In this document: piece after piece, positions 1-54,587 of the stretch
How positions within the stretch are numbered: the stretch's first letter is position 1
Layout of the letters: each line of letters starts with the position of its first letter
Notes under the pieces: generated by a model
Seen by the model: the letters and a program-made list of their open reading frames with translations, nothing else
Databases searched by the model: none
Told to the model about the DNA's origin: nothing
Translations under genes and position numbers: made by a program
Assembly (NCBI RefSeq): GCF_947499065.1
Contig: NZ_CANMMT010000002.1
Coordinates: 59,313-123,312, forward strand
DNA length: 64,000 bases
Source: an uncultured Tenacibaculum sp.
GTDB taxonomy: Bacteria; Bacteroidota; Bacteroidia; Flavobacteriales; Flavobacteriaceae
Direction: 5' to 3'

Positions 1-2
1 CA

Positions 3-446
3 GCACCAAAAGGTGTCAAAATGGGATCTATCGGTGGTGGAGGTCGTTATGACGACTTGACAGGAATTTTTGGACTAAAAGATGTAAGTGGAGTTGGAAT
101 TTCTTTTGGGTTAGATCGTATCTACCTGGTTATGGAAGAACTGAATTTATTTGAGGCAGTAGAATTACCTAAGCCAAAAGTATTATTCATAAATTTTGAT
201 GAAAGTCAGAGTTTATCTAAGATTAAAGCGATTAAAGAATTAAGAAATAACAACATAAAATCTGAATTATATCCAGATGTAGCTGGAAGTATTAAACAAC
301 AAAAGAAACAATGGAAGTATGCTACGAATAGAGAAATTGATTTTGTAGTAACAGATATAGAAAACGGTACACTTGTTGTTAAAAATATGAAGGCAGGAGA
401 ACAATTTAATTGTACTGTCAACGAATTGATTAACAAACTACAGTAA
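3..446 (+). CDS. hisS: Histidyl-tRNA synthetase, C-terminal part (gene begins before the window)
   Basis: GSIGGGGRYDDL...GVGISFGLDRI motif 3 followed by an anticodon-binding domain; frame is open from base 3. Confidence 0.93.
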   Translation, partial: APKGVKMGSIGGGGRYDDLTGIFGLKDVSGVGISFGLDRIYLVMEELNLFEAVELPKPKVLFINFDESQSLSKIKAIKELRNNNIKSELYPDVAGSIKQQKKQWKYATNREIDFVVTDIENGTLVVKNMKAGEQFNCTVNELINKLQ

Positions 447-464
447 ATTAACAACATTATATTG

Positions 465-472
465 TAAATTTG
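465..472 (+). promoter_or_regulatory. Bacteroidetes sigma70 -7 element upstream of folE
   Basis: TAAATTTG matches TAnnTTTG, 20 nt before the ORF. Confidence 0.55.
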
Positions 473-492
473 CGCCTTAATAACAGAAAGAA

Positions 493-1185
493 ATGTTTGA
501 AGTGAATAACAACAAAATGAATGACGAAAGAATAGATGAGATTGGGGAGAACCACGTAGGTACCTCAGCTCAAACTCCATTAAGAGCAGATGCTTTTGAT
601 ATTTCGGATAAAGAAAAAATAGAAAAAATACAGGAAAGTGTTAAAGATATTCTAGAAACTTTAGGAATGGATTTAACAGATGATAGTATGCAAGGAACTC
701 CTAAAAGAGTAGCTAAAGCTTTTGTTAATGAATTATTCATGGGATTAAACCCAAAGAACAAACCTGCTGCATCTACTTTTGATAATACCTATAAGTACGG
801 TGAAATGTTAGTAGAAAAAAATATCATTGTATATTCTACTTGTGAGCACCACTTATTACCAATTATAGGAAGAGCACATGTGGCTTATATTTCAAAAGGA
901 AAAGTTATTGGTTTATCTAAAATGAACCGTATTGTTGAGTATTATGCTAAACGTCCACAAGTACAAGAGCGTTTAACAATGCAAGTAGTACAGGCAATGC
1001 AAGAAGCTTTAGGAACAGATGATGTTGCTTGTGTTATTGATGCAAAACATTTATGTGTAAATTCTAGAGGAATTAAAGATATAGAAAGTAGTACAGTAAC
1101 AGCTGAGTTTGGTGGAGCGTTTAAAAACAAAGAAACTAAACGTGAGTTCTTAGACTATATAAAATTAAATACTGACTTCCAATAG
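493..1185 (+). CDS. folE: GTP cyclohydrolase I
   Basis: TPKRVAK, CEHHLLP, GLSKMNRIV, RPQVQERLT, HLCVNSRG motifs; the start could be a downstream ATG. Confidence 0.97.
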   Translation: MFEVNNNKMNDERIDEIGENHVGTSAQTPLRADAFDISDKEKIEKIQESVKDILETLGMDLTDDSMQGTPKRVAKAFVNELFMGLNPKNKPAASTFDNTYKYGEMLVEKNIIVYSTCEHHLLPIIGRAHVAYISKGKVIGLSKMNRIVEYYAKRPQVQERLTMQVVQAMQEALGTDDVACVIDAKHLCVNSRGIKDIESSTVTAEFGGAFKNKETKREFLDYIKLNTDFQ

Positions 1186-1208
1186 TAAAAAAGTCTTTAC
1201 AAATATTT

Positions 1209-1243
1209 AAAAAACTCTCAACTTTTAAAGTTGAGAGTTTTTT
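1209..1243 (+). terminator. Intrinsic terminator of folE
   Basis: aaaaaactctcaactt-tta-aagttgagagtttttt. Confidence 0.85.
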
Positions 1244-1419
1244 GTTTTAGTATAGTTTGATAATAGCTTAATATAAAAGGAAAGTAGGCATAATAAAATC
1301 CTTTAAACCTCATTTATAAATTAACAGCTATTTACAATAAATTAAAGTTTACTTTCTTCACTTAACAATTCTATTACGCTAAAATAGCTTTCTCTAAAAG
1401 TTTTCTTAATATTAAAAAG

Positions 1420-1434
1420 TTTACAAATAGTAAA
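1420..1434. promoter_or_regulatory. Candidate operator TTTAC-N5-GTAAA upstream of the TonB receptor
   Basis: TTTACAAATAGTAAA; near-identical copies at 7599 and 7629. Confidence 0.5.
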
Positions 1435-1486
1435 ATTATATAGTGATTTGTAGTGATTAAATTTAACTATTGTAAAACTAAACGAA

Positions 1487-4336
1487 ATGAATTATTTAAA
1501 ACTTTTATTAAGTACAATACTTGTTCTTTTTATAAGTACTGCTGTTTTAGCACAAAAATCTACCATTACTGGGGTAGTTAGCGATGGAAGTTATCCACTT
1601 CCAGGAGCTAGTGTTGTAGTTGTAGGAACTACAAAAGGGGTAAATACAGATATTGATGGAAACTTTGTCTTGAGTAAAGTCGGTATTGGAGAAATCGAAT
1701 TAGAAATATCATATATAGGTTTTCAAGCAAAAAAAGTAAAAGTATCCTTAGAGGAAGGAGCTCAAAAAAATATAGGAGTTGTAACATTAATTTCTTCTTC
1801 ACAAGAATTAGATGAAGTAATTATTAGCGGTGGTACACGAAGAAATAGCGAAGCTAAAGCATTAAGTATTCAAAAGAAATCGATGAGTATTATGAATGTT
1901 ATTGCAGCTGATGGTATAGGTAAATTACCAGATCGTAATGCTGCAGAAACTGTTCAACGTATTCAAGGATTATCTATAGAAAGAGACCAAGGAGAAGGGC
2001 GTTTTGTATCGGTAAGAGGATTGCCACCATTTTGGACATCTACCACTATTAACGGAAATAGAATTCCAACTGCTGAAGAAGAAACTACTTCAAGAGCTAC
2101 AGCATTCGATTTTTTTCCTTCAGAATTAATATCGTATGTACAAGCTGCAAAAGCATTTACTCCCGATATGGAAGCTGATGGAATTGGAGGAGGAGTAAAT
2201 TTTATAACGCAAACAGCTCCTACGAAACAAATTTTAAGTATAAACATTGGAGGAGGTTATAACGATAAATCAGGTAAGCCAATTTATAACGCGTCGTTAA
2301 CTTATGGTAATAAAAGTAAGGATGGAAAGTTTGGTTTTATTATCAATGGATCCTATTGGAATAGAAACTGGGGAACAGATAATTTTGAAGCTCGTAGAAA
2401 AGGAGATGAAGGAGTGTTTAGAATGGAGTTAAGAGATTATAATGGTGTAAGAATAACAACAGGTTTAAATGGAGCTATGGAGTATAATTTTACACCAGAT
2501 TATAAAATGTACTTCAGAGGAGTTTATGGTACGTTATCAGATACAGAAACACATTACAAACACAGAGTTCGTTTTGATAAATTCGATTCAGGTACCAATA
2601 CAGCTAGAGTAGAATTACAAAATATTTATAACGAACTTATTACAGAAATGTTTGGTGGAGAGCTTGGAGGAAAGCATTCATTAATAAACGGTAAGCTTGA
2701 TTGGAGTATTGCTTCTTATTCAAATGAATTTAGATATGGAAACATTCCTACAGCAAAAGATAAAAGTTATTATGTAGTTAAGTTTAAACAAGATGGTATT
2801 GGTATAAAACCAACATACTTAGATAATAGACCAACAGCCAATGGAGGAGCAGGAGATGATAGAGCATATTGGAAAGCAGATGGAGGTTTGTTAGACTATA
2901 ATGATACAGACGCCTTATTTGGTTTCTTTAGTGACCCAAATTTTAAAATGGATGCAACACAAATGTCTTTTTCTGATTTAGAGTTATATAAAATTTCAAT
3001 TAAAGAGCGAGATAATATAGTAGCTGCATTAAATTATGAACATACTATAAACGATAATTTTAAAATTAAAGTAGGAACAAAGTTTAGAGATAAAGATCGT
3101 AGAGCAACATTTGAAGATTTGTATTATGGATGGTCAGGAACAGGAGCTACACCAGTTTTATCAGATTATTCACAGTATTTAATGAATCAACCAGGGAAGG
3201 GAGATTTCTTAAAAGAAATGGGGTCTAATATTCAATCAACATTTAGTCCAGTACTATCTCAAGCTGGAATGAAAAACTTTTGGATAACAAATCAAGCTAA
3301 TTTATCAGTTTTACCAGGAGATTCATCAGCCTTACAATTTAATAGCGGTTTAGGTAGAAACTTTAATGTAGATGAAACTCATTTATCATTCTATGGTATG
3401 GGAACTTTAAAAGCATCTGAACAATGGACTATTTTAGGAGGTTTAAGAGCTACAAAAACAGAAACAAAAGTAGATGGGTATGTTGTTGAAAACAATGTTT
3501 TAACCAAAGCTATGAATACGAAAAGTTATTGGGCAGTATTACCAATGTTACACATTAAATATTCTCCAAAAAAGGATATGAATATTCGTTTTGCAGCTAC
3601 AAGAAGTTTTTCAAGGCCAAATTTTGGAGACATTTCACCATCTGGAACTTTTATTTCTTTCGATAACGAATTTAAAGGAGGGAATCCAAACTTAAATCCA
3701 ACATTTTCATGGAATTTCGATTTGTTAGGAGAGTATTATTTTAAAAATGTAGGAGTAATCAATGCAGGTTTTTTCTATAAATCAATAACAGATCCAGTAT
3801 TTAATGATACTTATCAAGGAACTTATAATGGACAAGCTGGAGTGGAATTTAGTACACCAACAAACGGTGCTGATGCTTGGATTGCTGGTATGGAATTAGG
3901 AATAAATAAGCGTTTTGATTTCTTACCAGGTTTCTTAAAATACTTTGGAACACAAGTAAATGTAACATTTATGGATTCCGAAATGACAAAGCCAAGTGGT
4001 AGAAAAGTATCTACTCCATACCAAGCAGGAACTTTATTTAATGCTCAATTGTTCTTTGAAAAAGGAGGTTTTAATACAAGGTTAGCATTCAATCATAAAG
4101 GAAGCTATGCTATTGGGTTTGGAGAAAGAGACATAGATGATGTATACTATGGAACTTACAATACTTTAGATTTTTCTGCATCGTATCAAATAGGGAAAAA
4201 TTGGACTATATATACTGATGTAAATAACATTTTAAACAATCCTCTAATTTATCACTATGGGAAAACAGAGGATCGTCCTAAACAAGTAGAATACTATGGT
4301 ATTAAAGGAAACATTGGTGTGAAGTTTAGTCTATAA
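1487..4336 (+). CDS. TonB-dependent receptor (N-terminal CarboxypepD_reg-like domain, plug, barrel), likely phosphonate/organophosphorus uptake
   Basis: Signal peptide, RNAAETVQRIQGLSIERDQGEGRFVSVRGL plug motif, C-terminal GVKFSL beta-strand; substrate inferred from gene context only. Confidence 0.9.
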   Translation: MNYLKLLLSTILVLFISTAVLAQKSTITGVVSDGSYPLPGASVVVVGTTKGVNTDIDGNFVLSKVGIGEIELEISYIGFQAKKVKVSLEEGAQKNIGVVTLISSSQELDEVIISGGTRRNSEAKALSIQKKSMSIMNVIAADGIGKLPDRNAAETVQRIQGLSIERDQGEGRFVSVRGLPPFWTSTTINGNRIPTAEEETTSRATAFDFFPSELISYVQAAKAFTPDMEADGIGGGVNFITQTAPTKQILSINIGGGYNDKSGKPIYNASLTYGNKSKDGKFGFIINGSYWNRNWGTDNFEARRKGDEGVFRMELRDYNGVRITTGLNGAMEYNFTPDYKMYFRGVYGTLSDTETHYKHRVRFDKFDSGTNTARVELQNIYNELITEMFGGELGGKHSLINGKLDWSIASYSNEFRYGNIPTAKDKSYYVVKFKQDGIGIKPTYLDNRPTANGGAGDDRAYWKADGGLLDYNDTDALFGFFSDPNFKMDATQMSFSDLELYKISIKERDNIVAALNYEHTINDNFKIKVGTKFRDKDRRATFEDLYYGWSGTGATPVLSDYSQYLMNQPGKGDFLKEMGSNIQSTFSPVLSQAGMKNFWITNQANLSVLPGDSSALQFNSGLGRNFNVDETHLSFYGMGTLKASEQWTILGGLRATKTETKVDGYVVENNVLTKAMNTKSYWAVLPMLHIKYSPKKDMNIRFAATRSFSRPNFGDISPSGTFISFDNEFKGGNPNLNPTFSWNFDLLGEYYFKNVGVINAGFFYKSITDPVFNDTYQGTYNGQAGVEFSTPTNGADAWIAGMELGINKRFDFLPGFLKYFGTQVNVTFMDSEMTKPSGRKVSTPYQAGTLFNAQLFFEKGGFNTRLAFNHKGSYAIGFGERDIDDVYYGTYNTLDFSASYQIGKNWTIYTDVNNILNNPLIYHYGKTEDRPKQVEYYGIKGNIGVKFSL

Positions 4337-4371
4337 GCTATGAGTAAAGATTTGAATTAAATGCAAAAACA

Positions 4372-4395
4372 AAGCTCTCAAATACTTGAGAGCTT
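4372..4395 (+). other. Intra-operonic stem-loop after the TonB receptor gene
   Basis: aagctctcaa-atac-ttgagagctt, followed by gttctg with no strong U-run. Confidence 0.65.
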
Positions 4396-4415
4396 GTTCT
4401 GTAAAATAAAAAAAT

Positions 4416-5684
4416 ATGCGTTTACGATTTTTATTACAAGCCTCCATAGCCGCATTCGGAACTTATTTCTGTATGTATGCATTTAGGAAACCATTTACGG
4501 TAGCAACATTTGCTAACGAATCATTCATAGGAATAGATTTTAAAATATTACTCATAATAGCTCAAGTAATAGGGTATACACTATCTAAGTTTATAGGAAT
4601 TAGAATAATAGCTGAGATGAAAAGCTCAAAAAGAATGATGTTTTTAATAGGCTTTATTCTTTTTGCTGAATTAGCTCTTTTAGGTTTTGCTACAGTTCCT
4701 GCTCCTTATAATATAGTATGTTTATTTTTTAATGGACTTCCTTTAGGAATGATTTGGGGAATAGTATTTTCCTATTTAGAAGGAAGAAAAGCTACAGAGT
4801 TATTGGGAGTTATTTTATCATCAAGTTTTATCGTGTCTTCAGGCGCTGTAAAATCGGTAGGTAAAATAGTTTTAGATACATTTCACTTTAATGAATATTG
4901 GATGCCTTTTATAACAGGAGGATTTTTTATTATTCCACTAATCTTTTTTGCTTGGTTATTAGAAAGACTACCAGAACCAACAAAAGAAGATAAATTGCTT
5001 AGAACAGTAAGAAAACCATTAGATAAAACTGAAAGAAAGAGGTTGTTTAGAAAGTTTGTAATTCCATTAACTCTTATAGTTTTCTTCTTTATGCTATTGA
5101 CATCTATTAGAGATTTTAGAGACAATTTTGCAAGAGAAATTTGGGATGCATTAGGGTATGAAGACGCATCAATTTATAGTATATCAGAAATACCAATAGC
5201 AATAACAGTACTAATAGTTTTAGGTTTTATAGGGAGCATAACTAAAAACTTTAAAGCTTTTATGTATTATCATTATGTATTGATAATTGGCTGTACTTCA
5301 ATTATCATTTCGACTTTATTATTTCAGCAGTCATTAATTTCTCCCTTAGTATGGATGACGGTTTCAGGATTAGGTTTGTATAGTTGCTATGTACCATTCA
5401 ATGGAATTTTCTTTGATAGAATGATAGCAACTTTTAAAATTAAAGGAAACGTAGGTTTTTTAATATACATAGCAGATGCATTCGGTTATTTGGGTAGTAT
5501 ACTCATTTTACTATATAAAAACTTTGGAAAAGGCGATATTTCTTGGCTAAGCTTTTTCATAACAGCTTTATACTTTTTAGCATTTATAGGGCTAATAATA
5601 ACTACTTATTGTTTTCAATTTTTTAGAAGAAAATATAAAAAACCAATACAAATACAAGAATTAATTTATGAACAACAAATATGA
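4416..5684 (+). CDS. DUF5690-type MFS-like membrane transporter
   Basis: About 12 hydrophobic helices; YFCMYAFRKPF, SSSFIVSSG, RDFRDNF and YIADAFGYLGS motifs recalled for this family. Confidence 0.8.
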   Translation: MRLRFLLQASIAAFGTYFCMYAFRKPFTVATFANESFIGIDFKILLIIAQVIGYTLSKFIGIRIIAEMKSSKRMMFLIGFILFAELALLGFATVPAPYNIVCLFFNGLPLGMIWGIVFSYLEGRKATELLGVILSSSFIVSSGAVKSVGKIVLDTFHFNEYWMPFITGGFFIIPLIFFAWLLERLPEPTKEDKLLRTVRKPLDKTERKRLFRKFVIPLTLIVFFFMLLTSIRDFRDNFAREIWDALGYEDASIYSISEIPIAITVLIVLGFIGSITKNFKAFMYYHYVLIIGCTSIIISTLLFQQSLISPLVWMTVSGLGLYSCYVPFNGIFFDRMIATFKIKGNVGFLIYIADAFGYLGSILILLYKNFGKGDISWLSFFITALYFLAFIGLIITTYCFQFFRRKYKKPIQIQELIYEQQI

Positions 5685-6834
5685 TTTAATTGTAGTGGGA
5701 GGTGGAGTTTTAGGAACTTTCCACGCATATCATGCAGCAAAAAAAGGACTATCGGTAATAATTTTAGAAAAAGATGCAAAACCGAATGGAGCTACAGTAC
5801 GCAATTTTGGGCAAGTAGTTCCTTCAGGGATGAATCAGAAATGGCAAAACTTTGGAAGAGAAAGTTTAGCTATTTATAAAGAAATTCAAAAAGAATTTGA
5901 TATTACTATTAGGCAAAATGGAACGGTATATCTAGCATCAAATGAAGAAGAGGTTCAGTTGATAGAAGAACTTCATGAAATTAATAAGCAAAATAATTAT
6001 ACATCTGAACTATTTACAAAACAGCAATGTTTAAATAAGTATGACGGTTTGCGAAGTGATTATTGTAAAGCAGGTTTATTTTTTCCTCAAGAAGTAACGG
6101 TAGAGCCAAGAACAATGATTTTACAATTACATTCTTTTTTAAGAGAACAAGGTATTCAAGTTTGTTATAATACCACAGTAATAAATACAGAAGAAATAAA
6201 TGGAGAAGTACAAGTAACATCTTCAAATGGAGAAGAGTTTAAAGCATTGAAAGTTTTGATATGCAACGGATCAGATTTTAAAACCTTATATCCTTCAATT
6301 TATAATGAAAGTGATTTAGTTGTTTCTAAATTACAAATGATGCAAACAAAACCACAAGGTAATTATAGGTTAAATGGATCTATTTTAACAGGTTTAACCA
6401 TTAGACGTTATGAAGCTTTTGAAGAATGTTCATCATGGAATTTAATCAAATCGAAAGAAAATCCAAATAGTTTTGAAAAGAAATATGGAGTGCACATATT
6501 ATTTAAGCAAGCTACAGACGGATCTATAATATTAGGTGATTCACATGAATATGCAGATGCAAAGAATATTGACAGTTTAGGTTTCGATTTAAAAGAAGAA
6601 ATTGACAGTTTTATGTTACAAGAAGCAAAGAAAATTATAGAGCTACCAAACTATGAAATCCAGCATCGTTGGGCAGGATTTTATAGTCAATGTAAAACCA
6701 AAGACATTTTTGAACACACTATAGGAGATAATATACATATAGTAACAGGTATAGGAGGGAAAGGAATGACGGGTAGCGCTGGATTTTCAAAAGAAAAAAT
6801 TAATAAGGTATTTAATTTAGTATATGATAAATAA
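5668..6834 (+). CDS. FAD-dependent oxidoreductase, TIGR03364/DAO family (phosphonate-cluster associated)
   Basis: GGGVLG Rossmann motif, GATVRNFGQVVPSG, C-terminal TGIGGKGMTGS; overlaps the upstream gene by 17 nt. Confidence 0.85.
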   Translation: MNNKYDLIVVGGGVLGTFHAYHAAKKGLSVIILEKDAKPNGATVRNFGQVVPSGMNQKWQNFGRESLAIYKEIQKEFDITIRQNGTVYLASNEEEVQLIEELHEINKQNNYTSELFTKQQCLNKYDGLRSDYCKAGLFFPQEVTVEPRTMILQLHSFLREQGIQVCYNTTVINTEEINGEVQVTSSNGEEFKALKVLICNGSDFKTLYPSIYNESDLVVSKLQMMQTKPQGNYRLNGSILTGLTIRRYEAFEECSSWNLIKSKENPNSFEKKYGVHILFKQATDGSIILGDSHEYADAKNIDSLGFDLKEEIDSFMLQEAKKIIELPNYEIQHRWAGFYSQCKTKDIFEHTIGDNIHIVTGIGGKGMTGSAGFSKEKINKVFNLVYDK

Positions 6835-7501
6835 AGAGATACAAATGGTTGTTTTTGATATGGCAGGAACAACAGTAGATGAACAAAATGTAGTTTATAA
6901 AACGTTGCATAAAGCGTTAAATGAACATGGAGTTGATGTAGATTTAGCTACAGTTTTAAAACTAGGAGCTGGTAAGGAAAAGCATCAGGCAATAAAAGAT
7001 GTATTGAACTATAGTAAACCAAATCAATTAATAGAATCAGAAACCATTTTTGAAGATTTCAAAGTCTTATTAAATAAAGCTTATAAAGATTTAGAAGTAA
7101 AACCAATAAAAGGGGTACAAAGAGTTTTATTAAATCTTAGAGAAGAAGGTATAAAAGTAGTTTTAAATACAGGGTATAATAGAGAAGTAGCTACTTTATT
7201 ATTGGAAAAATTACAATGGGATGAAAAGATACATTACGATGCACTTATAACAGCAAGCGATGTAGTAAAAGGACGTCCTCATCCTGATATGATTTTTAAA
7301 GCAATGGAGTTGTTTAATATAACAGATGCTTCTACAGTTTTAAAGGCAGGTGACTCTGCTATAGATATAGCAGAAGGAAAAAATGCAGGCTGTGGAATAA
7401 CAATAGGTGTATTGTCTGGAGCACAAACTCAAGAACAACTAGAAGAAGAAAAACCAACCTATATTTTAAATTCGTTAACAGCTATTAATGAAGTTTTTTG
7501 A
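6824..7501 (+). CDS. Phosphonatase-like HAD hydrolase (PhnX-like)
   Basis: FDMAGTTVD (DxxGT rather than DxDGT), LNTG, GRPHPDM, KAGDSAID, GKNAG motifs; Lys53 in the cap domain. Confidence 0.85.
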   Translation: MINKEIQMVVFDMAGTTVDEQNVVYKTLHKALNEHGVDVDLATVLKLGAGKEKHQAIKDVLNYSKPNQLIESETIFEDFKVLLNKAYKDLEVKPIKGVQRVLLNLREEGIKVVLNTGYNREVATLLLEKLQWDEKIHYDALITASDVVKGRPHPDMIFKAMELFNITDASTVLKAGDSAIDIAEGKNAGCGITIGVLSGAQTQEQLEEEKPTYILNSLTAINEVF

Positions 7502-7598
7502 TAGTTTAAATAATTGTAAAACATTTGTTTATGAAAATTAAAGTTAATGTTAGCTAGATTATTATAAGATTAATATTCATAAAGTAGGGTCTTGAAAG

Positions 7599-7643
7599 TT
7601 TACTAATAGTATATATTTAAATAACAAATTAACTAATAGTAAA
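7599..7643. promoter_or_regulatory. Two candidate operator copies upstream of the phosphatase-hemopexin gene
   Basis: TTTACTAATAGTATA (7599-7613) and TTAACTAATAGTAAA (7629-7643). Confidence 0.5.
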
Positions 7644-7652
7644 CTTTTTTTT

Positions 7653-9470
7653 ATGAAAACAAATTATTTTTTAAAGCTTTTGGCTTTAACTTTTACACTA
7701 ACAATTACAAGTTGTCAGGAAAACGGATTGGAAGAGATAACTTCTAAACAAAAAAAATCAAGTAAAAATGTTGGATCAAAATCATCGCTAAAAAAGAAGG
7801 TTTTGGTTGTAGGTTTTGATGGTATCCAGTTTGAGAAAATTTCAGAAACATCAACACCAAATTTAGATAAGCTAAATATTGTGAAAGCTTATGCTGGTGG
7901 AATTGATAATACAGCATCAGAGCAAAAAACAAGTAGTGGACCAGGTTGGACTACTATTTTAACAGGAGTTTGGGTAAACAAACATGGTGTAGCTGATAAT
8001 AGTACATCAAACAAATCTAAAGTAAAGAGTGTTTTTGAGTTAATTAAAAACTCTAAACAAAATTTAAAAACAGCAAGTGTAGTTACTTGGGCTCCAATTC
8101 ATGACTTTTTTAGAGATAAATTAAATTTTATCGATTATCATTCTAAGAGCGGAGGAGATGAAAACAGTGTAACAGGAGCTATTCATGCAATTAAAAATGA
8201 AGAATCAGATTTCGTTTTTGTTCATTTAGATGATGTAGATGGAGTAGGACATTCATTGGGGTTTGGTACTTCATATAACAAAGCAATAACGAAAGCAGAT
8301 GAGCAATTTGGAAGAATTGTAGCTGAAATTGAAAAAAGAACTGATGAAGATTGGTTAATTATGGTGGTTACCGATCATGGTAGAGGAAGTGGTGGATATA
8401 ACCATGGAGGACAAACTACTCAAGAGAAAACTATATTTGTGGGAATGAATAAAGTGGGAAATGAAGAGTTTACTTCTTCAGTACCTACAATTCCAAATAA
8501 AGACTATCAAGGAATTTATGGTTATGTAGCTCAAACAGCTATAGTACCATCGGTATTAACCCATTTAGGTATTTCAATTCAAAAAGAATGGCAACTAAAT
8601 AGTACTTCATTAATTGGTAATGTTGGAGTTAGAAAAGTTATGATGCATAACTTAAACACAATTTATTGGAGTTCTAATTCATCAGGTAATGTTGAAATTT
8701 ATAAGAATAATTCTTTCTTAAGTTCTGTTTCAGCGTCACAAGGTTTGTATTCAGATATTAGTTCTGATGGAAGTGTTAATTATACATTAATGTTAAACGG
8801 ACAAAGTGGTTCAGTAGCTTTAAATAATTCAAAAATTATAGCGGGGTTAGATTGGAATGATATGATAAATAACAGAGCTTATTTTTTTAGAAGTGATAAT
8901 AAGTATGTGCGTTACAATAAAACATTGGATAAATCAGATAGTGGATATCCAAAGGAAACAAATAATAGTTCATGGCCAGGACTTGGAGCGTATAAAGAAG
9001 CAATTAGCGCAGCTTTTAAATGGCATAATAATAAAGGGTACTTTTTTTTGAATGACGGTAGATATATACGTTACGATATGAATTCAGATTCGGTAGACTC
9101 AGGGTATCCAACTACAATTACAAATGGAAATTGGCCAGGTCTAGACTCATATAAAAATAAAATAATAGCAGCACTAAATTGGAATAATAGTAAGGCATAC
9201 TTCTTTTTAAATGATGGAACCTATATTAGATATAGTATTAGTAATGATGAGGTTGATTCTGGATATCCAAAGCCAATAAATAATAGTACATGGCCAGGAT
9301 TAGGAGATTATAAGACTAAAATTACTGCAGCTGTAGATTGGAACTCGACATTTTGTTATTTCTTTTTAGATAATAATACGTATATAAAGTATAGCAAAAT
9401 AACAGATAGTGCAGTTTCAGGATATCCAAAGCCTGTAAATAACAGTACATGGCCAGGGTTAAACAATTAA
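7653..9470 (+). CDS. Lipoprotein: alkaline-phosphatase-superfamily (NPP/phosphodiesterase-type) domain plus a 4-blade hemopexin-like domain
   Basis: Lipobox ITSC; VVGFDG, SSGPGW, HLDDVDGVGH and TDHG metal/nucleophile motifs; four C-terminal YFF..GYP..WPGL repeats. Confidence 0.85.
   Translation: MKTNYFLKLLALTFTLTITSCQENGLEEITSKQKKSSKNVGSKSSLKKKVLVVGFDGIQFEKISETSTPNLDKLNIVKAYAGGIDNTASEQKTSSGPGWTTILTGVWVNKHGVADNSTSNKSKVKSVFELIKNSKQNLKTASVVTWAPIHDFFRDKLNFIDYHSKSGGDENSVTGAIHAIKNEESDFVFVHLDDVDGVGHSLGFGTSYNKAITKADEQFGRIVAEIEKRTDEDWLIMVVTDHGRGSGGYNHGGQTTQEKTIFVGMNKVGNEEFTSSVPTIPNKDYQGIYGYVAQTAIVPSVLTHLGISIQKEWQLNSTSLIGNVGVRKVMMHNLNTIYWSSNSSGNVEIYKNNSFLSSVSASQGLYSDISSDGSVNYTLMLNGQSGSVALNNSKIIAGLDWNDMINNRAYFFRSDNKYVRYNKTLDKSDSGYPKETNNSSWPGLGAYKEAISAAFKWHNNKGYFFLNDGRYIRYDMNSDSVDSGYPTTITNGNWPGLDSYKNKIIAALNWNNSKAYFFLNDGTYIRYSISNDEVDSGYPKPINNSTWPGLGDYKTKITAAVDWNSTFCYFFLDNNTYIKYSKITDSAVSGYPKPVNNSTWPGLNN
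8835..9467 (+). repeat. Four hemopexin-like repeats with exact 159-nt (53-aa) period
   Basis: tggccagg at 8973, 9132, 9291 and 9450. Confidence 0.9.
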
Positions 9471-9483
9471 GAATAAAATTTTA

Positions 9484-9517
9484 AAATAGGTAGAATTCGA
9501 ATGAGTTCTGCCTATTT
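9484..9517. terminator. Terminator between the convergent phosphatase and XRE genes
   Basis: 15-bp stem aaataggtagaattc/gagttctgcctattt with two G-U pairs on the + strand; overlaps the XRE stop codon. Confidence 0.75.
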
Positions 9518-10087
9518 ATTTTCAGAATAAAAGTATAAAACCAGCATGGTACAATCTTTATCAGATTTGTTGATAGGTACATGAGGATTTCTTCCATCAA
9601 AATATAGAGAGTCTCCTTCGGAAACTAATACTTCTTCATTATTTATTAAATAGGTACATTTACCACTAATAATAAATTTAAATTCCCAAGCATCAGTAAC
9701 GACCTTTTCTCTTTTAGAATTTGGTTTGATGTTTAAAATAACAGCTTCAAAACCTATAGCAGATAAACTTTTACTAAATAAATGATGATAGGTAAAACCT
9801 TCTGCCTCTACTTCTTTTTCAATAAGTTGTTGTTGGTCTTTTGAAATGTGAATGTAGTTGGCAGTTTGAGAATTTTCAATCCCTCTAAAAAAAGTACTAG
9901 CATCAATTTTTAAAGCACTAATTAATTCTAACAAAACAGGTAAAGAAGGAATAGTTCTTCCATTTTCTATTCTTGAAATCAAACCATTAGAAACACCTGC
10001 GTTTGAAGCTACATCACTAATGGTTAATTTTTGTTCTTTTCTGATGGTTTTGATACGTTTACCAATACCTATTAAAAAATTATTCAT
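9512..10087 (-). CDS. XRE-family HTH plus cupin transcriptional regulator
   Basis: N-terminal HTH (GVSNGLISRIENGRTIPSL) and C-terminal cupin (EFKFIISG...GDSLYFDGRNPH). Confidence 0.92.
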   Translation of the reverse strand: MNNFLIGIGKRIKTIRKEQKLTISDVASNAGVSNGLISRIENGRTIPSLPVLLELISALKIDASTFFRGIENSQTANYIHISKDQQQLIEKEVEAEGFTYHHLFSKSLSAIGFEAVILNIKPNSKREKVVTDAWEFKFIISGKCTYLINNEEVLVSEGDSLYFDGRNPHVPINKSDKDCTMLVLYFYSENK

Positions 10088-10262
10088 AGAGTAATTTTGA
10101 AAATTAAATGTAAATAAAAACTACGAATATTTAGAGGACTTATCTTAAAAAGTAAAAATACTGTTTTAAGTAAATGAAACTCAAAATCTTTTCAAGAAAG
10201 TTATGTGAATAAAATAATTATAATAAAATCAATAATTTACGCTTTAATAAAAAAAATGGCAC

Positions 10263-10270
10263 TACCTTTG
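10263..10270 (+). promoter_or_regulatory. -7 promoter element of the cold-shock gene
   Basis: TACCTTTG followed by ca. Confidence 0.6.
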
Positions 10271-10322
10271 CAGTACAATAAACGTTGTTAGCACTTAAGC
10301 AAGCAACACATAATTTTTTATA

Positions 10323-10514
10323 ATGAATAAAGGTACTGTAAAATTTTTCAACGAATCAAAAGGATTTGGATTTATCGTTGAAGAAGGAACAAACAAAGAA
10401 CATTTTGTACACGTTTCTGGATTAATTGATGAAATCCGTGAAAACGACGAAGTAGAATTCGAGTTACAAGAAGGAAGAAAAGGATTAAACGCTGTTAACG
10501 TAAGAGTATTATAA
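10323..10514 (+). CDS. Cold-shock protein (CSD)
   Basis: GTVKFFNESKGFGFI and HFVHVS RNP motifs, 63 aa. Confidence 0.96.
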   Translation: MNKGTVKFFNESKGFGFIVEEGTNKEHFVHVSGLIDEIRENDEVEFELQEGRKGLNAVNVRVL

Positions 10515-10546
10515 TATATAGATTACCAGAGTAAACTTTTTAATGA

Positions 10547-10574
10547 GAAAAGCCTATCATAGTTGATAGGCTTT
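10547..10574 (+). terminator. Terminator after the cold-shock gene
   Basis: aaagcctatca-tagt-tgataggcttt followed by a T-rich run. Confidence 0.75.
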
Positions 10575-10601
10575 CTTATTTTTATATTTTAATTGTATCA
10601 A

Positions 10602-10802
10602 ATGAAAGACGGAAGAAATAGAAAAGACATAAAGATTGGGTTAGAAGTTGAGGTTGTTCAAAAAAATCATCAAAGAACTGGAGAGTTAACTGCAGGAATT
10701 GTAGGGAAGATATTAACGAAATCGTCAAATCATGCCCATGGAATTAAAGTGCAATTAGAATCAGGAATTGTAGGTAGAGTTAAAAATATAATCGATAATT
10801 AA
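10602..10802 (+). CDS. YwbE/DUF2196 family small protein
   Basis: VVQKNHQRTGELTAGIVGKILTKSSNHAHGIKVQLESGIVGRVK; ATG at 10602 preferred over TTG at 10593. Confidence 0.85.
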   Translation: MKDGRNRKDIKIGLEVEVVQKNHQRTGELTAGIVGKILTKSSNHAHGIKVQLESGIVGRVKNIIDN

Positions 10803-10809
10803 AACTAAA

Positions 10810-11025
10810 CTATTCTTCTTCGTTAATCTGTTTTAATTTTTTTACACCATCAATTAAAAACCATCCGGCAAATAATATTCTAATAAGTACAAAAATATAC
10901 TTGTTTTCGGTTTTAAAATTTAAAATAACTCGGTAGCTTTCTAAATCTTGAGAAAACCTAGAAAAAGTGTTAACAAGAATAAAAATACCGATAGCTATAT
11001 ATATAATAGGTAATATTTTTTTCAT
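10810..11025 (-). CDS. Small two-helix membrane protein, hypothetical
   Basis: Two hydrophobic segments; start overlaps the upstream stop by 1 nt. Confidence 0.7.
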   Translation of the reverse strand: MKKILPIIYIAIGIFILVNTFSRFSQDLESYRVILNFKTENKYIFVLIRILFAGWFLIDGVKKLKQINEEE

Positions 11026-11927
11026 TATTTAATAGGGATTTTAAGAGTGTATTCTTTACGACTTTTATTATTAAGTTTTGTTTCTCTTAACCATGGATTT
11101 ACCAACTTTAAATCTTTATAAGTCACACCACAAGTCTTAGCAAAACTCGCAATATTTGTTATAGCAGTATCTACTTTAATTTCATAAGTGTCAGGGAAGG
11201 TATAAAGGTCTTCTTTGTCAAATACAAAACCATATTTTTTAGGATTCGACATCACTTCTTTTAAAGCTAAAATTCTAAAAACATATCTACCAGTTTCGGT
11301 ATTTAAAAGTAAGTCGTAATAATCGCTTACTTGTTGTTGCTTCATACGTTGCGATATTCTCCCATTTCCAGCATTGTAAGCTGCTGCTGCAAGTGTCCAA
11401 GAACCTAATTTTTTCTTAGCCTTTTTTAAATATTCGGCAGCAACTCTTGTCGATTTTTCTAAGTTATAACGCTCATCAACATTTCTATTAACTTCCAATC
11501 CATATTCACGTCCAGTTGCTGGCATAAAATGCCAATATCCAGCAGCTCCTTTAGAAGAAGGAATGTTAATTAAAGCACTTTCTGCAACACATAAATATTT
11601 AAAATCGTCAGGTAAACCATATTCTTTAAGCAAGGGTTCTATAATAGGAAAAAACTTGTTAGCTCTTTTTATTAATAATAATCCGTTTGATTGCCAGTAA
11701 GTATTAACAAGTAACTCGCGATCCATTCGCTCTTTAATATCAGCTCTTTCTAAGGGAACACGTTCTCCAGCCAATTCCATGTATTTTGGAACTTTAACAG
11801 CTCTAATTTCATAGCTTTCCGCTACATTTTTAACTTCTGGTTCATTAGATTGACTAATGATATTCGTAAATAACACTCCTACAAAAACGACTGTAGTGAG
11901 TGATAAGAATCGTATTGATTTATTCAT
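11025..11927 (-). CDS. Lytic transglycosylase (SLT/MltD-like)
   Basis: YLCVAES, GAAGYWHF, VDERYNLEKST, AAAAYNAG, ETGRYV motifs. Confidence 0.92.
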   Translation of the reverse strand: MNKSIRFLSLTTVVFVGVLFTNIISQSNEPEVKNVAESYEIRAVKVPKYMELAGERVPLERADIKERMDRELLVNTYWQSNGLLLIKRANKFFPIIEPLLKEYGLPDDFKYLCVAESALINIPSSKGAAGYWHFMPATGREYGLEVNRNVDERYNLEKSTRVAAEYLKKAKKKLGSWTLAAAAYNAGNGRISQRMKQQQVSDYYDLLLNTETGRYVFRILALKEVMSNPKKYGFVFDKEDLYTFPDTYEIKVDTAITNIASFAKTCGVTYKDLKLVNPWLRETKLNNKSRKEYTLKIPIK

Positions 11928-11960
11928 CCTCTTTATTTTTTTGTTGAAGTTACTTTGGTA

Positions 11961-12626
11961 TTAAGCATTCAAAAAGCATTCCTTTTCTAATATTTTAGAA
12001 ATAGTTTTTGCTTTATTCAGAATCATAATATGAGTTCCATTTTCAACCTCAATATAATTTTCTATGTGTTTTACTGGAAATACTTCATCTTTATTTCCAT
12101 GAATATGAATTACATTTTTTAAAGGCTCTTCTTGTTGCCAATGTAATACATTGTAAATAGCCCATTGTAAATAGTCTTTATCTCTTATTGATAAGTATAA
12201 CTTATACAATTCAGCTCTTTTCTTTAAATAATCATTAAAGAAATAATGCTCATAGCTTTCAATATTCGCTATAATATTTGAAGGGAAAAGCTTATAAGCC
12301 CTTGTTAATTGAGCTATTTTTAAGCGTTTGGGTAGTTCTTTGTTGGTTTTTATGCTAGATATAAGAATAACTTTTTTACAGTTAATGAGCTTACTCATTT
12401 CTTGTACCATAACACCTCCAAAAGATACTCCTACTAATATAGGGTTTTTATGTTGAATATTAGCACACATTCTTTGTGCATATTCTTCAATAGTTTCATT
12501 TAGCGATTTTGGTAATATCCAACTTAAATAATGAAGCTCAAAATGTTCGTCTGATAAAGAAAGATACTCAAATATTTTAATGTTTGCGGCTAAACCGGGA
12601 ACAAAATACACATGAGTTTTTGCCAT
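11961..12626 (-). CDS. Alpha/beta hydrolase
   Basis: GVSFGG nucleophile elbow, HIHGNKDEVFP, GTHIM. Confidence 0.88.
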   Translation of the reverse strand: MAKTHVYFVPGLAANIKIFEYLSLSDEHFELHYLSWILPKSLNETIEEYAQRMCANIQHKNPILVGVSFGGVMVQEMSKLINCKKVILISSIKTNKELPKRLKIAQLTRAYKLFPSNIIANIESYEHYFFNDYLKKRAELYKLYLSIRDKDYLQWAIYNVLHWQQEEPLKNVIHIHGNKDEVFPVKHIENYIEVENGTHIMILNKAKTISKILEKECFLNA

Positions 12627-53645: not shown

Positions 53646-54587
53646 TTATCCTTTATTTAAAGGACTAATTATTTCTACATCGCTAAAAGCTATAGCGCCT
53701 CTTACAACGCTATCAATGGTACTTTTTAAAGCTTCTATTAACTGCATTTTTAATTGAGATTTATGATAAATTAAACTAACCTCTCTAGCTGGAGGTGGAG
53801 TTTCAAATTCTCTAAGGTGTTCTTTGTCTTTTTCGTTTAAATCCAAAGTATTTAAATAAGGTAATAAAGTCATACCTAATCCATCTTTAGATAATTTAAT
53901 TAAAGTATCAAAGCTTCCGCTTTCTAGTTGGAAATGATTTTTAGAATTTCTTTTGTCAGTTCTACATAGATTTATAACACTGTCTTTAAAGCAATGTCCG
54001 TCTTCTAATAATAAGATATCATCAACCTCTAAGTCGTTAACTTCAATTTTCTTTTTTTCAAATAAACGATGTTCGTGTGGTATTAAACCTACAAAAGGTT
54101 CGTAATATAAAACACGTTCTTTAATAGCTTCGTTTTCTAATGGAGTTGCAGCTAAAGCAGCATCAATATGACCATCCATTAACTTTCTAACAATTTCCTC
54201 GGTAGTTAATTCTTCTATGATTAATTGAACTTTAGGATAGTTTCTACTAAATGTTTTTAAAAACATAGGTAACAGAGTAGGCATTATAGTAGGAATTATT
54301 CCAAGTTTGAATTCTCCTCCAACATAACCTTTTTGTTGGTGTACAATGTCTAGAATACGATTACTTTCATCGACAATAACTTTTGCTTGTTCTACTATTT
54401 TTTTACCAACTTCAGTTAACTCGATAGGTTTTTTAGAACGGTTAAATATTTTAGCATCTAATTCTTCTTCCAATTTTTGTATTTGCATACTTAATGTTGG
54501 TTGAGTAACGAAACAATGCTCGGCAGCAATTGTAAAGTTTTTATACTCAGCAACAGATAAGGTATATTTTAGTTGTGTTATAGTCAT
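53646..54587 (-). CDS. oxyR: Hydrogen-peroxide sensor OxyR (LysR family)
   Basis: LysR HTH; LLEDGHCFKDSVINLC redox Cys pair; divergent from dps. Confidence 0.94.
   Translation of the reverse strand: MTITQLKYTLSVAEYKNFTIAAEHCFVTQPTLSMQIQKLEEELDAKIFNRSKKPIELTEVGKKIVEQAKVIVDESNRILDIVHQQKGYVGGEFKLGIIPTIMPTLLPMFLKTFSRNYPKVQLIIEELTTEEIVRKLMDGHIDAALAATPLENEAIKERVLYYEPFVGLIPHEHRLFEKKKIEVNDLEVDDILLLEDGHCFKDSVINLCRTDKRNSKNHFQLESGSFDTLIKLSKDGLGMTLLPYLNTLDLNEKDKEHLREFETPPPAREVSLIYHKSQLKMQLIEALKSTIDSVVRGAIAFSDVEIISPLNKG

Follow-up and report, generated by a model that had tools for sequence, protein, structure and literature searches.

Gene content of the candidate locus

We examined a 64,000-nucleotide stretch of DNA from an uncultured Tenacibaculum sp. 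(contig NZ_CANMMT010000002.1, positions 59,313 to 123,312; hereafter the window) for a six-gene cluster that is a candidate phosphonate utilisation locus. The cluster consists of genes for a TonB-dependent receptor (TBDT), a DUF5690 transporter, a PbfD-family FAD amine oxidase, a PhnX-like HAD hydrolase and an NPP-hemopexin lipoprotein, followed by a convergent gene for an XRE-cupin regulator (Table 1). An initial annotation, made from the sequence, had placed six open reading frames (ORFs) here, and all six were found at exactly those positions. The overlap it described among the last three genes before the lipoprotein gene is real, amounting to 17 nt between the DUF5690 and oxidase genes and 11 nt between the oxidase and HAD genes. 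Its family calls stood up in a search with hidden Markov models, including TIGR03364, TIGR03351 and DUF5690, in which the receptor, the DUF5690 protein, the oxidase and the HAD protein all scored above curated cut-offs. A receptor lacking a SusD partner and a convergent XRE-cupin regulator had also been described; the gene after the receptor encodes DUF5690, with no SusD ORF downstream, and the regulator gene encodes an HTH_3 plus Cupin_2 protein. Finally, the window had been reported to hold no phnW, phnA, phnY or C-P lyase gene, and a scan of 20 other window ORFs of suitable size likewise gave no match to PhnW, PhnA, PhnY or C-P lyase subunits.

Table 1. Positions of genes and sequence features of the locus (numbering of the window)
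Feature	Position	Strand	Remarks
Hairpin terminator after folE, left locus boundary	1208..1244	.	17-bp perfect inverted repeat and T-run
Operator-like inverted pair upstream of the TBDT gene	1418..1479	.	AGTTTACAAATAGT at 1418-1431; partner arm at 1460-1479
TBDT gene	1487..4336	+	TIGR01782; Plug and barrel domains
10-bp GC-containing hairpin in the 79-nt gap between the TBDT and DUF5690 genes	4372..4395	.	Possible attenuator or processing site
DUF5690 transporter gene	4416..5684	+	PF18943
PbfD-family FAD amine oxidase gene	5668..6834	+	TIGR03364
PhnX-like HAD hydrolase gene	6824..7501	+	TIGR03351
Second operator-like inverted pair, upstream of the NPP gene	7597..7645	.	AGTTTACTAATAGT at 7597-7610 (+) and 7632-7645 (-)
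NPP-hemopexin lipoprotein gene	7653..9470	+	PF01663, PF00045
XRE-cupin regulator gene	9512..10087	-	HTH_3 and Cupin_2; convergent with the NPP gene

Conservation of the gene arrangement

Conservation was assessed in 80 loci anchored on DUF5690, with one genome per species, whose neighbouring genes were classified with the window proteins. The DUF5690, PbfD and PhnX-like genes were contiguous in 64 of these loci, distributed over many Flavobacteriales genera, and an XRE-cupin gene and an NPP-domain gene were present in 62 and 60 of them, respectively. Such an arrangement is far beyond chance. It also extends beyond the phylum: a locus of Microbulbifer pacificus encodes a TBDT (47% identity over 868 residues), a DUF5690 protein (45%), a PbfD oxidase (40%) and an NPP-hemopexin protein (49%), together with a canonical PhnX as C-P hydrolase (24% identity) and a GntR protein as regulator. 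Four of the six genes in the window therefore travel together between Bacteroidota and Gammaproteobacteria, and by sequence comparison the Microbulbifer module is the strongest single argument tying the receptor and the lipoprotein to the transporter and the oxidase.

The region is present in coral, oyster, algal and seawater metagenomes. No natural phosphonates are commoner than 2-aminoethylphosphonate (AEP) and its methylated forms. Compounds of this type abound in corals, anemones and molluscs; cnidarians and molluscs carry them as major head groups of lipids and glycans, and ceramide-AEP is described as a major lipid of these animals. N-methylated AEPs were first isolated from sea anemones.

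The oxidase and the hydrolase belong to phosphonate-specific families

The oxidase scored 426.5 bits against TIGR03364 (cut-off 285.1), with residues 5-376 aligned to profile positions 1-365, and carries the N-terminal FAD motif GGGVLG. Enzymes of this family were named PbfD by Zangelmi et al. 2023 (PMC10590968). In that study, purified PbfD enzymes from A. baumannii and M. fucicola converted N-methyl-AEP (M1AEP) and AEP to phosphonoacetaldehyde (PAA) with O2, and most pbfD genes beyond the PbfD1 clade were found to cluster with phnX alone, in place of the gene for the transaminase PhnW. The pbfD-phnX clusters in its Table S1 span many phyla, including Dyadobacter, with no Flavobacteriia among them. 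A position beside a phnX-type gene is also what we found here, as the oxidase and PhnX-like genes overlap by 11 nt and the pair is kept in 64 of the 80 loci. PbfD membership supports the initial annotation, which pointed to FAD oxidoreductases of phosphonate clusters as oxidative deaminases that yield PAA. Members of this family stand in for PhnW, and the oxidase is predicted to convert AEP or N-methyl-AEP to PAA.

With 238.5 bits, the HAD protein passed the threshold of the PhnX-like family TIGR03351 (cut-off 218.9). Its alignment with B. cereus PhnX (E = 7e-20) shows that the TGY, GRP and GDxxxD motifs are retained, as is the nucleophile motif DxAGT, here D12-M-A-G-T16. K51 falls in the column of the Schiff-base residue K53 of the B. 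cereus enzyme, whose position the K53R mutant entry 2ioh fixes, and H54 falls in that of H56. Among 67 HAD orthologues, D12, A14, G15, T16 and N115-Y118 were invariant, while K51 was present in 48. These residues are consistent with the predicted role of the protein as a PAA hydrolase that cleaves the C-P bond.

Two variations of this enzyme pair were seen. All 19 Chryseobacterium PhnX-like proteins (loci L048, L050 and L053-L080; e.g. L050:12395-13111) read CAGMEKL where others read GAGKEKH, so that Met occupies the K53-equivalent position and Leu that of the His, with a Lys retained two residues on. In these proteins either the catalytic lysine is shifted or the mode of working is different. 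In an otherwise typical Winogradskyella locus, the oxidase slot (L011:11266-12501) is taken by a SolA/ThiO-like FAD enzyme that scored 55 bits against TIGR03364 (cut-off 285) and may be a PbfC-type or independently recruited aminophosphonate oxidase.

DUF5690 as a candidate aminophosphonate importer

The DUF5690 protein matched PF18943 with 561.7 bits (gathering score 25; residues 26-406 on profile positions 1-382) and MFS_1 with 21.8 bits, under the gathering score of 33.4. The family is large, with more than 7,900 proteins at E ≤ 0.001 among 8,000 candidates scored; the window protein is 98% identical to its T. aiptasiae homologue, and members from different phyla share 45-48% identity. An AlphaFold2 model (pLDDT 84, pTM 0.83) has a 12-helix MFS fold, and the nearest solved folds identified by Foldseek are anion and organophosphate carriers (sialin, G6PT/SLC37A4, SLC37A2, DgoT and GlpT; TM scores 0.65-0.72). 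A profile of 12 DUF5690 proteins matched no PDB sequence, that of GlpT included, at E = 1 or better. DUF5690 is not a member of the GlpT/UhpT/AepP family of organophosphate:inorganic phosphate (Pi) antiporters, but it may work like GlpT-type carriers.

The genes beside DUF5690 vary. DUF5690 accompanies PbfA, the ammonia-lyase acting on (R)-1-hydroxy-2-aminoethylphosphonate (HAEP), in Arenibacter (728 bits) and Algibacter (576 bits; cut-off 525); the Arenibacter stretch examined, which ends just past PbfA, contains no PbfD or PhnX. It stands beside PbfD, a PhnZ-like HD protein and a canonical PhnX in Microbulbifer, beside TmpA (543 bits, cut-off 400) and a TmpB-like HD oxygenase in Rhizomicrobium, and beside a Phn-HD oxygenase and a PhyH hydroxylase in Bowmanella, and a soil metagenome contig (L090) has the order TBDT-PbfD-PhnX-DUF5690. 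Because the enzyme partners change while the substrate class stays constant, DUF5690 very probably imports aminophosphonates, as a carrier distinct from AepP.

Known AEP importers provide a comparison. The AepXVW, AepP and AepSTU systems (Murphy et al. 2021, PMC8316502) also place inner-membrane AEP import beside catabolic genes, and AepP, too, is an MFS protein. AepP is GlpT-like (28% identity, E = 9e-37), whereas DUF5690 forms a separate family under the MFS_1 threshold. We considered the identity of DUF5690 with AepP and rejected it on these grounds and on the outcome of the profile search.

Some neighbours of DUF5690 are of interest in their own right. The HD oxygenases beside it (L081:5494-6144, L089:6220-6840 and L088:9504-10124) score just under curated cut-offs (194-204 bits for Phn-HD, cut-off 214.6; 266 for TmpB, cut-off 300) and may form a distinct PhnZ/TmpB-like subgroup. 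Upstream in the Arenibacter locus (L026:3261-6413) are genes for an amidohydrolase (PRK09237, 449 bits), a DgaE-like pyridoxal phosphate-dependent ammonia-lyase and a RidA-like protein, which look like a separate amino-sugar or amino-acid deamination cassette; a gene for a CopA copper ATPase lies between this cassette and DUF5690.

A stand-alone TonB-dependent receptor

The receptor is a member of TIGR01782 (TonB-Xanth-Caul; 471.9 bits, cut-off 310), with CarboxypepD_reg at the N-terminus, a Plug domain and a TonB_dep_Rec barrel. It does not belong to the SusC family TIGR04056, against which it scored 71.4 bits (cut-off 368) in a match limited to the N-terminal domain. Orthologues with 59-69% identity lie directly upstream of DUF5690 in 37 of the 80 loci, in Tenacibaculum, Flavobacterium, Chryseobacterium and Pseudofulvibacter. 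In Zobellia, Maribacter, Flagellimonas, Pricia, Algibacter and T. ovolyticum, the same core is accompanied by a SusC/SusD pair and an NPP enzyme. The idea of a single family of phosphonate TBDTs was discarded: the Microbulbifer receptor is orthologous (47%), the receptor on contig L090 is dissimilar, the Bowmanella receptor shares 28-34% identity with the window TBDT in parts only, and many other loci use SusC/D.

Loci of the SusC/D type have a further uncharacterised gene of 419-427 amino acids that always follows the NPP gene (L026:18162-19445, L015:6999-8258) and occurs as a truncated copy at L055:20439-21224. Its product matches no Pfam family, shows a faint ComEC/metallo-beta-lactamase-like match, and is absent from the window.

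A predicted extracellular NPP enzyme with a hemopexin propeller

The lipoprotein had been described as a phosphatase. Its lipoprotein nature was upheld, and the enzyme assignment was refined to an NPP-type, phosphodiesterase-like domain (PF01663; 60.1 bits, gathering score 23) followed by a beta-sandwich and a four-blade hemopexin propeller (PF00045; 61 bits, gathering score 21.3), an arrangement also seen in an AlphaFold2 model (pLDDT 90.9). All NPP metal ligands and a Ser/Thr nucleophile are in place: D56, T93/S95, D196, H200, D241, H242 and H251 show no variation among 30 homologues and match the motifs of ENPP4/5/7 in an alignment. Foldseek matched the NPP domain to ENPP3/5/7 and, more generically, to the alkaline-phosphatase superfamily (sulfatases, LtaS, ENPPs), and the closest homologues with known activity share about 20% identity. 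The model for PafA (NF042991) gave no match to the window lipoprotein, and an Arenibacter NPP scored 39 bits (cut-off 650). The propeller (residues 395-605) resembles matrix metalloproteinase and plant hemopexin folds (TM scores about 0.75-0.83), among them one plant hemopexin-fold protein reported to haemagglutinate.

Acidic residues after the lipobox cysteine are a signal of surface-exposed Bacteroidota lipoproteins. Such residues follow Cys21 here and in the Bacteroidota orthologues, while the Proteobacterial homologues have plain signal peptides, and the lipoprotein is probably surface-exposed. The NPP domain is fused to hemopexin, to Laminin_G_3 plus DUF4983, or to CHB_HEX_C plus PA14 in variant loci, a lectin-like partner in every variant. 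The Chryseobacterium enzyme ends in a type IX secretion system sorting domain and is therefore exported. Together, these features suggest that the NPP enzyme binds a macromolecule outside the cell and cuts a P-O ester, so that the phosphonate is freed from lipids or glycans. The natural proposal is that free AEP is released, since phosphonate monoesters, among them ceramide-AEP and AEP-sugars, are steric analogues of phosphodiesters. ENPP7, alkaline sphingomyelinase (5tcd), shares with this protein and with bacterial NPPs a bimetal site and Thr/Ser nucleophile motifs, and its reaction, removal of the head group of a ceramide phosphodiester, is the one that we propose for ceramide-AEP. It differs in that the window NPP is only about 20% identical to it, has a Ser aligned with the nucleophile Thr, and is fused to a hemopexin propeller.

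We also considered the NPP-hemopexin gene as a strict marker of phosphonate loci and rejected this use, as three of six sampled contexts outside Tenacibaculum were unrelated. In Vibrio proteolyticus (L082:8001-11959), the gene lies between a peptide ABC importer plus M24 peptidase and an M9 collagenase, which hints that in some bacteria it is part of a tissue- or matrix-degrading set and not of a phosphonate locus.

The regulator and an operator-like motif

The regulator matched HTH_3 with 49.6 bits and Cupin_2 with 43.3 bits. This architecture is all that it shares with the PuuR equivalog NF007408 (49.6 bits, cut-off 211). PuuR, the E. coli repressor of putrescine utilisation, is also an HTH_3 plus cupin protein that senses a small molecule and represses an amine-catabolic operon, whereas the operator sequence and the effector predicted for the window regulator are different.

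A 14-nt inverted-repeat motif, AGTTTACWAATAGT, occurs as pairs that precede both transcription units of the locus, and at up to one mismatch these two pairs are the only sites in the 64-kb window. In orthologous loci of many genera the motif lies about 55 nt upstream of the first gene, and Chryseobacterium and Tenacibaculum loci have equivalent pairs ahead of their NPP genes. At the same stringency, the 1.58 Mb of the 80 loci contained 89 sites, compared with 1-6 in random sequence of the same composition. Eighty-four of them are located no more than 300 nt upstream of a TBDT, DUF5690, NPP or SusC gene of the cluster and the other five within ORFs; other intergenic DNA in the 1.58 Mb contained none. 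The motif was present in 48 of the 62 loci with an XRE-cupin gene versus 2 of the 18 without one, and it was absent from Arenibacter, Microbulbifer and Bowmanella-type loci, where the regulators are different. As a consensus, the motif reads AAA-AGTTTAC(A/T)AATAGT-AAA, with a spacing of 35-46 nt, usually 45-46 nt, between the inverted arms; single arms without a partner also occur, and the arm sequence is fixed while the spacing varies.

From its distribution, the motif is the probable operator of the XRE-cupin protein, which is predicted to be a ligand-sensing repressor of the locus. A regulator belonging to the locus itself points to control by substrate. As the NPP gene is preceded by an operator-like pair of its own, the lipoprotein gene would fall in the same regulon as the rest.

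A model for phosphonate utilisation

Cross-phylum synteny and the shared operator-like motif tie the TonB receptor, DUF5690 and the NPP lipoprotein to the core enzymes. Taken together, these data argue that the cluster serves the utilisation of AEP and its N-methylated relatives under control by the substrate, an interpretation to which we assign a probability of roughly 0.7. In the model that we propose, the NPP-hemopexin lipoprotein would bind a phosphonate-bearing macromolecule, such as an AEP-decorated glycan or ceramide-AEP, and hydrolyse the P-O ester to free the aminophosphonate. The TBDT would then take the small phosphonate across the outer membrane, as synteny and co-regulation suggest, and the DUF5690 carrier, for which guilt-by-association is strong, would move it into the cytoplasm. 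There PbfD, by the family function that others have established in vitro, would deaminate AEP or N-methyl-AEP with O2 to PAA, and the PhnX-like HAD protein, which has the requisite residues, would cleave the C-P bond via a lysine Schiff base to yield acetaldehyde and phosphate. Repression of both units would come from the XRE-cupin protein, bound to the inverted AGTTTACWAATAGT pairs, and would end once its cupin domain is occupied by an effector, probably the phosphonate. AEP release by the NPP enzyme is the weakest step of the model.

The initial annotation had envisaged a complete route from the outer membrane to the cytoplasm for larger phosphonate-bearing substrates. The phosphonate-type enzymes and the linkage of receptor and transporter bear this out, but import of whole head-group conjugates is probably not what happens: the data suggest extracellular cleavage of large conjugates by the NPP enzyme, with the small, free aminophosphonate as the species that crosses the membranes. 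A phnW-less route had also been presented in a way that implied novelty. The PbfD-PhnX pathway without PhnW was published in 2023 (PMC10590968), so the route is less novel than this implied. The published pathway resembles the window in its TIGR03364 FAD oxidase, its phosphonatase-type HAD enzyme, its phnW-less logic and a Bacteroidota example, Dyadobacter. It differs in its clusters: none of those listed is from Flavobacteriia, and their descriptions mention no TonB receptor, DUF5690, NPP enzyme or XRE-cupin protein. A further difference is that the window HAD belongs to the PhnX-like clade TIGR03351 and not to canonical PhnX.

TonB receptors or PusCD proteins beside phnX and dao genes in Flavobacterium were remarked upon in 2019-2021, and again in a 2026 preprint on PusCD, without being characterised (10.1101/719427; PMC8115612; 10.64898/2026.09.03.749221). 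We share the earlier view of the receptor, transporter and true substrate as uncharacterised, and the literature searched contained no functional treatment of DUF5690. What we add, as inferences from sequences and structural models, is fourfold: a putative carrier family dedicated to aminophosphonates (DUF5690), an NPP enzyme that recurs with lectin-like modules, a module shared between phyla, and a predicted operator.

Evidence against the model, and alternative interpretations

Several observations weigh against this interpretation, some of them in favour of specific alternatives. The sequencing runs that contain the region are DNA metagenomes or isolates, with zero RNA runs listed. The receptor family varies between loci, SusC/D pairs or unrelated TBDTs taking its place, and a TBDT within 10 kb is weak evidence in Bacteroidota, where TBDTs are very common. 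The sequence signal taken to indicate surface exposure of the lipoprotein is a loose one, and Foldseek found no substrate-specific structural match for its NPP domain. Moreover, NPP-hemopexin homologues lie away from phosphonate genes in Vibrio proteolyticus, Hahella and Pseudoalteromonas, and three Tenacibaculum loci (L001-L003) have no NPP gene. Given these unrelated contexts and NPP-less loci, the NPP gene is to be seen as an accessory part that may encode a general phosphoesterase. The same facts, together with a Chitinimonas NPP-hemopexin gene in a general phosphorus-scavenging context, would fit a locus that scavenges free AEP and N-methyl-AEP only, next to a general secreted phosphodiesterase or phosphatase that is co-located and co-regulated by chance. 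We consider such a coincidence unlikely, as an NPP-domain gene persists in 60 of the 80 loci despite changes in architecture, recurs with DUF5690 in Microbulbifer and Bowmanella, and in the window has its own copy of the locus-specific operator pair. The operator assignment calls for similar caution. The motif was defined from the window before being searched for at up to one mismatch, 14 loci with the regulator have no site at that stringency, and binding of the XRE-cupin protein to AGTTTACWAATAGT is a prediction. Other readings of the pairs are a Pho box or a site for a different global regulator, a specialised promoter element, and a regulatory RNA hairpin formed by the two arms over the translation start. 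In keeping with an RNA hairpin, the arms are complementary, and in several loci the end of the downstream arm is 2-9 nt from the start codon; related Flavobacterium loci are induced by Pi depletion (PMC8115612; 10.1101/719427); the Flavobacterium PHO-regulon paper states no Pho-box motif. Such roles are hard to reconcile with the lack of sites in other intergenic DNA and in the loci with other regulators, or with the occurrence of lone arms and the fixed arm sequence at variable spacing, and no Rfam element matched positions 1-12000 of the window at E = 0.1 or better. We regard them as improbable, and prefer the operator of the XRE-cupin protein.

For the enzymes, the difficulty lies with the HAD protein, which fell below the cut-off of the canonical PhnX equivalog TIGR01422 (117.9 bits, cut-off 220), is therefore filed as PhnX-like rather than as canonical PhnX, and does not conserve Cys22 of B. 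cereus PhnX. No assay of any TIGR03351 member was found in the literature searched, and to our knowledge enzymes of this family have never been assayed. A different substrate is conceivable on these grounds, namely a PAA analogue such as hydroxy-phosphonoacetaldehyde derived from HAEP; this was the original proposal for TIGR03351 and TIGR03364, and the TIGR03364 description quoted by Zangelmi et al. suggested HAEP as substrate (PMC10590968). However, characterised PbfD enzymes yield PAA from AEP and M1AEP (PMC10590968), the Algibacter PhnX-like gene is followed by PbfA, whose product is PAA, and a canonical PhnX takes the same place beside PbfD and DUF5690 in Microbulbifer and on contig L090, which together make the analogue very unlikely. 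An even more radical possibility is that the cluster has nothing to do with C-P compounds and imports and oxidises an ordinary amine or an amino-phosphate ester such as phosphoethanolamine, which the HAD protein dephosphorylates. The breadth of the DAO and HAD superfamilies and the family identity of NPP as a phosphoesterase would allow this. We find it scarcely credible for a locus in which both enzymes exceed the cut-offs of phosphonate-specific subfamilies, the Schiff-base lysine peculiar to phosphonatases is present, and the transporter family co-occurs with PbfA, TmpA and PhnZ-type enzymes, which act on phosphonates only; in addition, none of the Pbf oxidases tested in plate assays reacted with non-phosphonate analogues such as sarcosine, taurine or beta-alanine (PMC10590968). 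A phosphonate locus that acts on AEP and its N-methylated forms by way of PAA accounts for these observations best.

Relation to other utilisation systems

The window gene order, which is conserved, combines a TBDT, phosphoesterases and an inner-membrane organophosphorus carrier, and in this it resembles the Pus/PusCD systems of Flavobacterium (Lidbury et al., PMC8115612, 10.1101/719427; Connolly et al. 2026, 10.64898/2026.09.03.749221). Related loci in Zobellia, Arenibacter and T. ovolyticum share with those systems the use of SusC/D-like pairs. Unlike them, the window has a stand-alone Xanth-Caul TBDT with no SusD-like lid, and an XRE-cupin regulator in place of an extracytoplasmic function sigma/anti-sigma pair or PhoBR. 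The characterised Pus pairs are the phosphoinositide systems PusCD1 and PusCD2 only, and not the phosphonate-linked ones. The locus also recalls SusC/D polysaccharide utilisation loci, which comprise a surface enzyme with a binding module, a TonB importer, an inner-membrane carrier, cytoplasmic enzymes and a dedicated sensor-regulator. Its predicted target is a phosphonate head group, and it differs from polysaccharide utilisation loci in having no glycoside hydrolases and no SusD.

Bacteroidota are key degraders of marine particulate matter. Cytoplasmic AEP breakdown is well known, and the gaps concern the release of conjugates, the crossing of two membranes in Bacteroidota and the regulation of such loci; a 2023 review is silent on conjugate release and on membrane crossing in Bacteroidota. 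The locus offers candidates for each missing step, namely the DUF5690 family, exported NPPs with binding modules, receptors of at least three kinds, and a regulator with a predicted operator. A broader generalisation, which we offer tentatively as one that could well prove wrong, is that DUF5690 is the principal unrecognised inner-membrane importer of the AEP family in Bacteroidota and many Proteobacteria, that the neighbouring lectin-tagged NPPs are the missing extracellular phosphonate-ester hydrolases, liberating AEP from phosphonolipids and phosphonoglycans, and that these, with a TonB receptor and an AEP-sensing XRE-cupin protein acting on AGTTTACWAATAGT, make up a "phosphonate utilisation locus" analogous to those for polysaccharides. 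If this is true, bacteria associated with invertebrates and algae could use such a locus to draw on conjugated phosphonates. If confirmed, DUF5690 would be a better metagenomic marker of aminophosphonate use in Bacteroidota than aepX, aepP or phnD.

Flanking sequences and other features of the window

Upstream of the strong terminator that bounds the locus on the left are the housekeeping genes hisS and folE. Within the locus, the hairpin between the TBDT and DUF5690 genes could act as an attenuator or processing site that sets the ratio of receptor to downstream transcript. Elsewhere in the window, a LysR regulator (53646-54587, - strand) matched OxyR best, at 207 bits (cut-off 329), and was likewise below threshold for TIGR03339, a LysR family associated with AEP catabolism (109 bits, cut-off 341); it is probably unrelated to the locus. 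The apparently empty 940 nt past the regulator gene (10088-11024) were considered as part of the locus and rejected, as small genes lie inside. These encode a 63-amino-acid cold-shock protein (10323-10514, + strand), a 69-amino-acid YwbE-like protein (10593-10802, + strand) and a 71-amino-acid membrane protein (10810-11025, - strand), and a terminator hairpin is located at 10549-10574.

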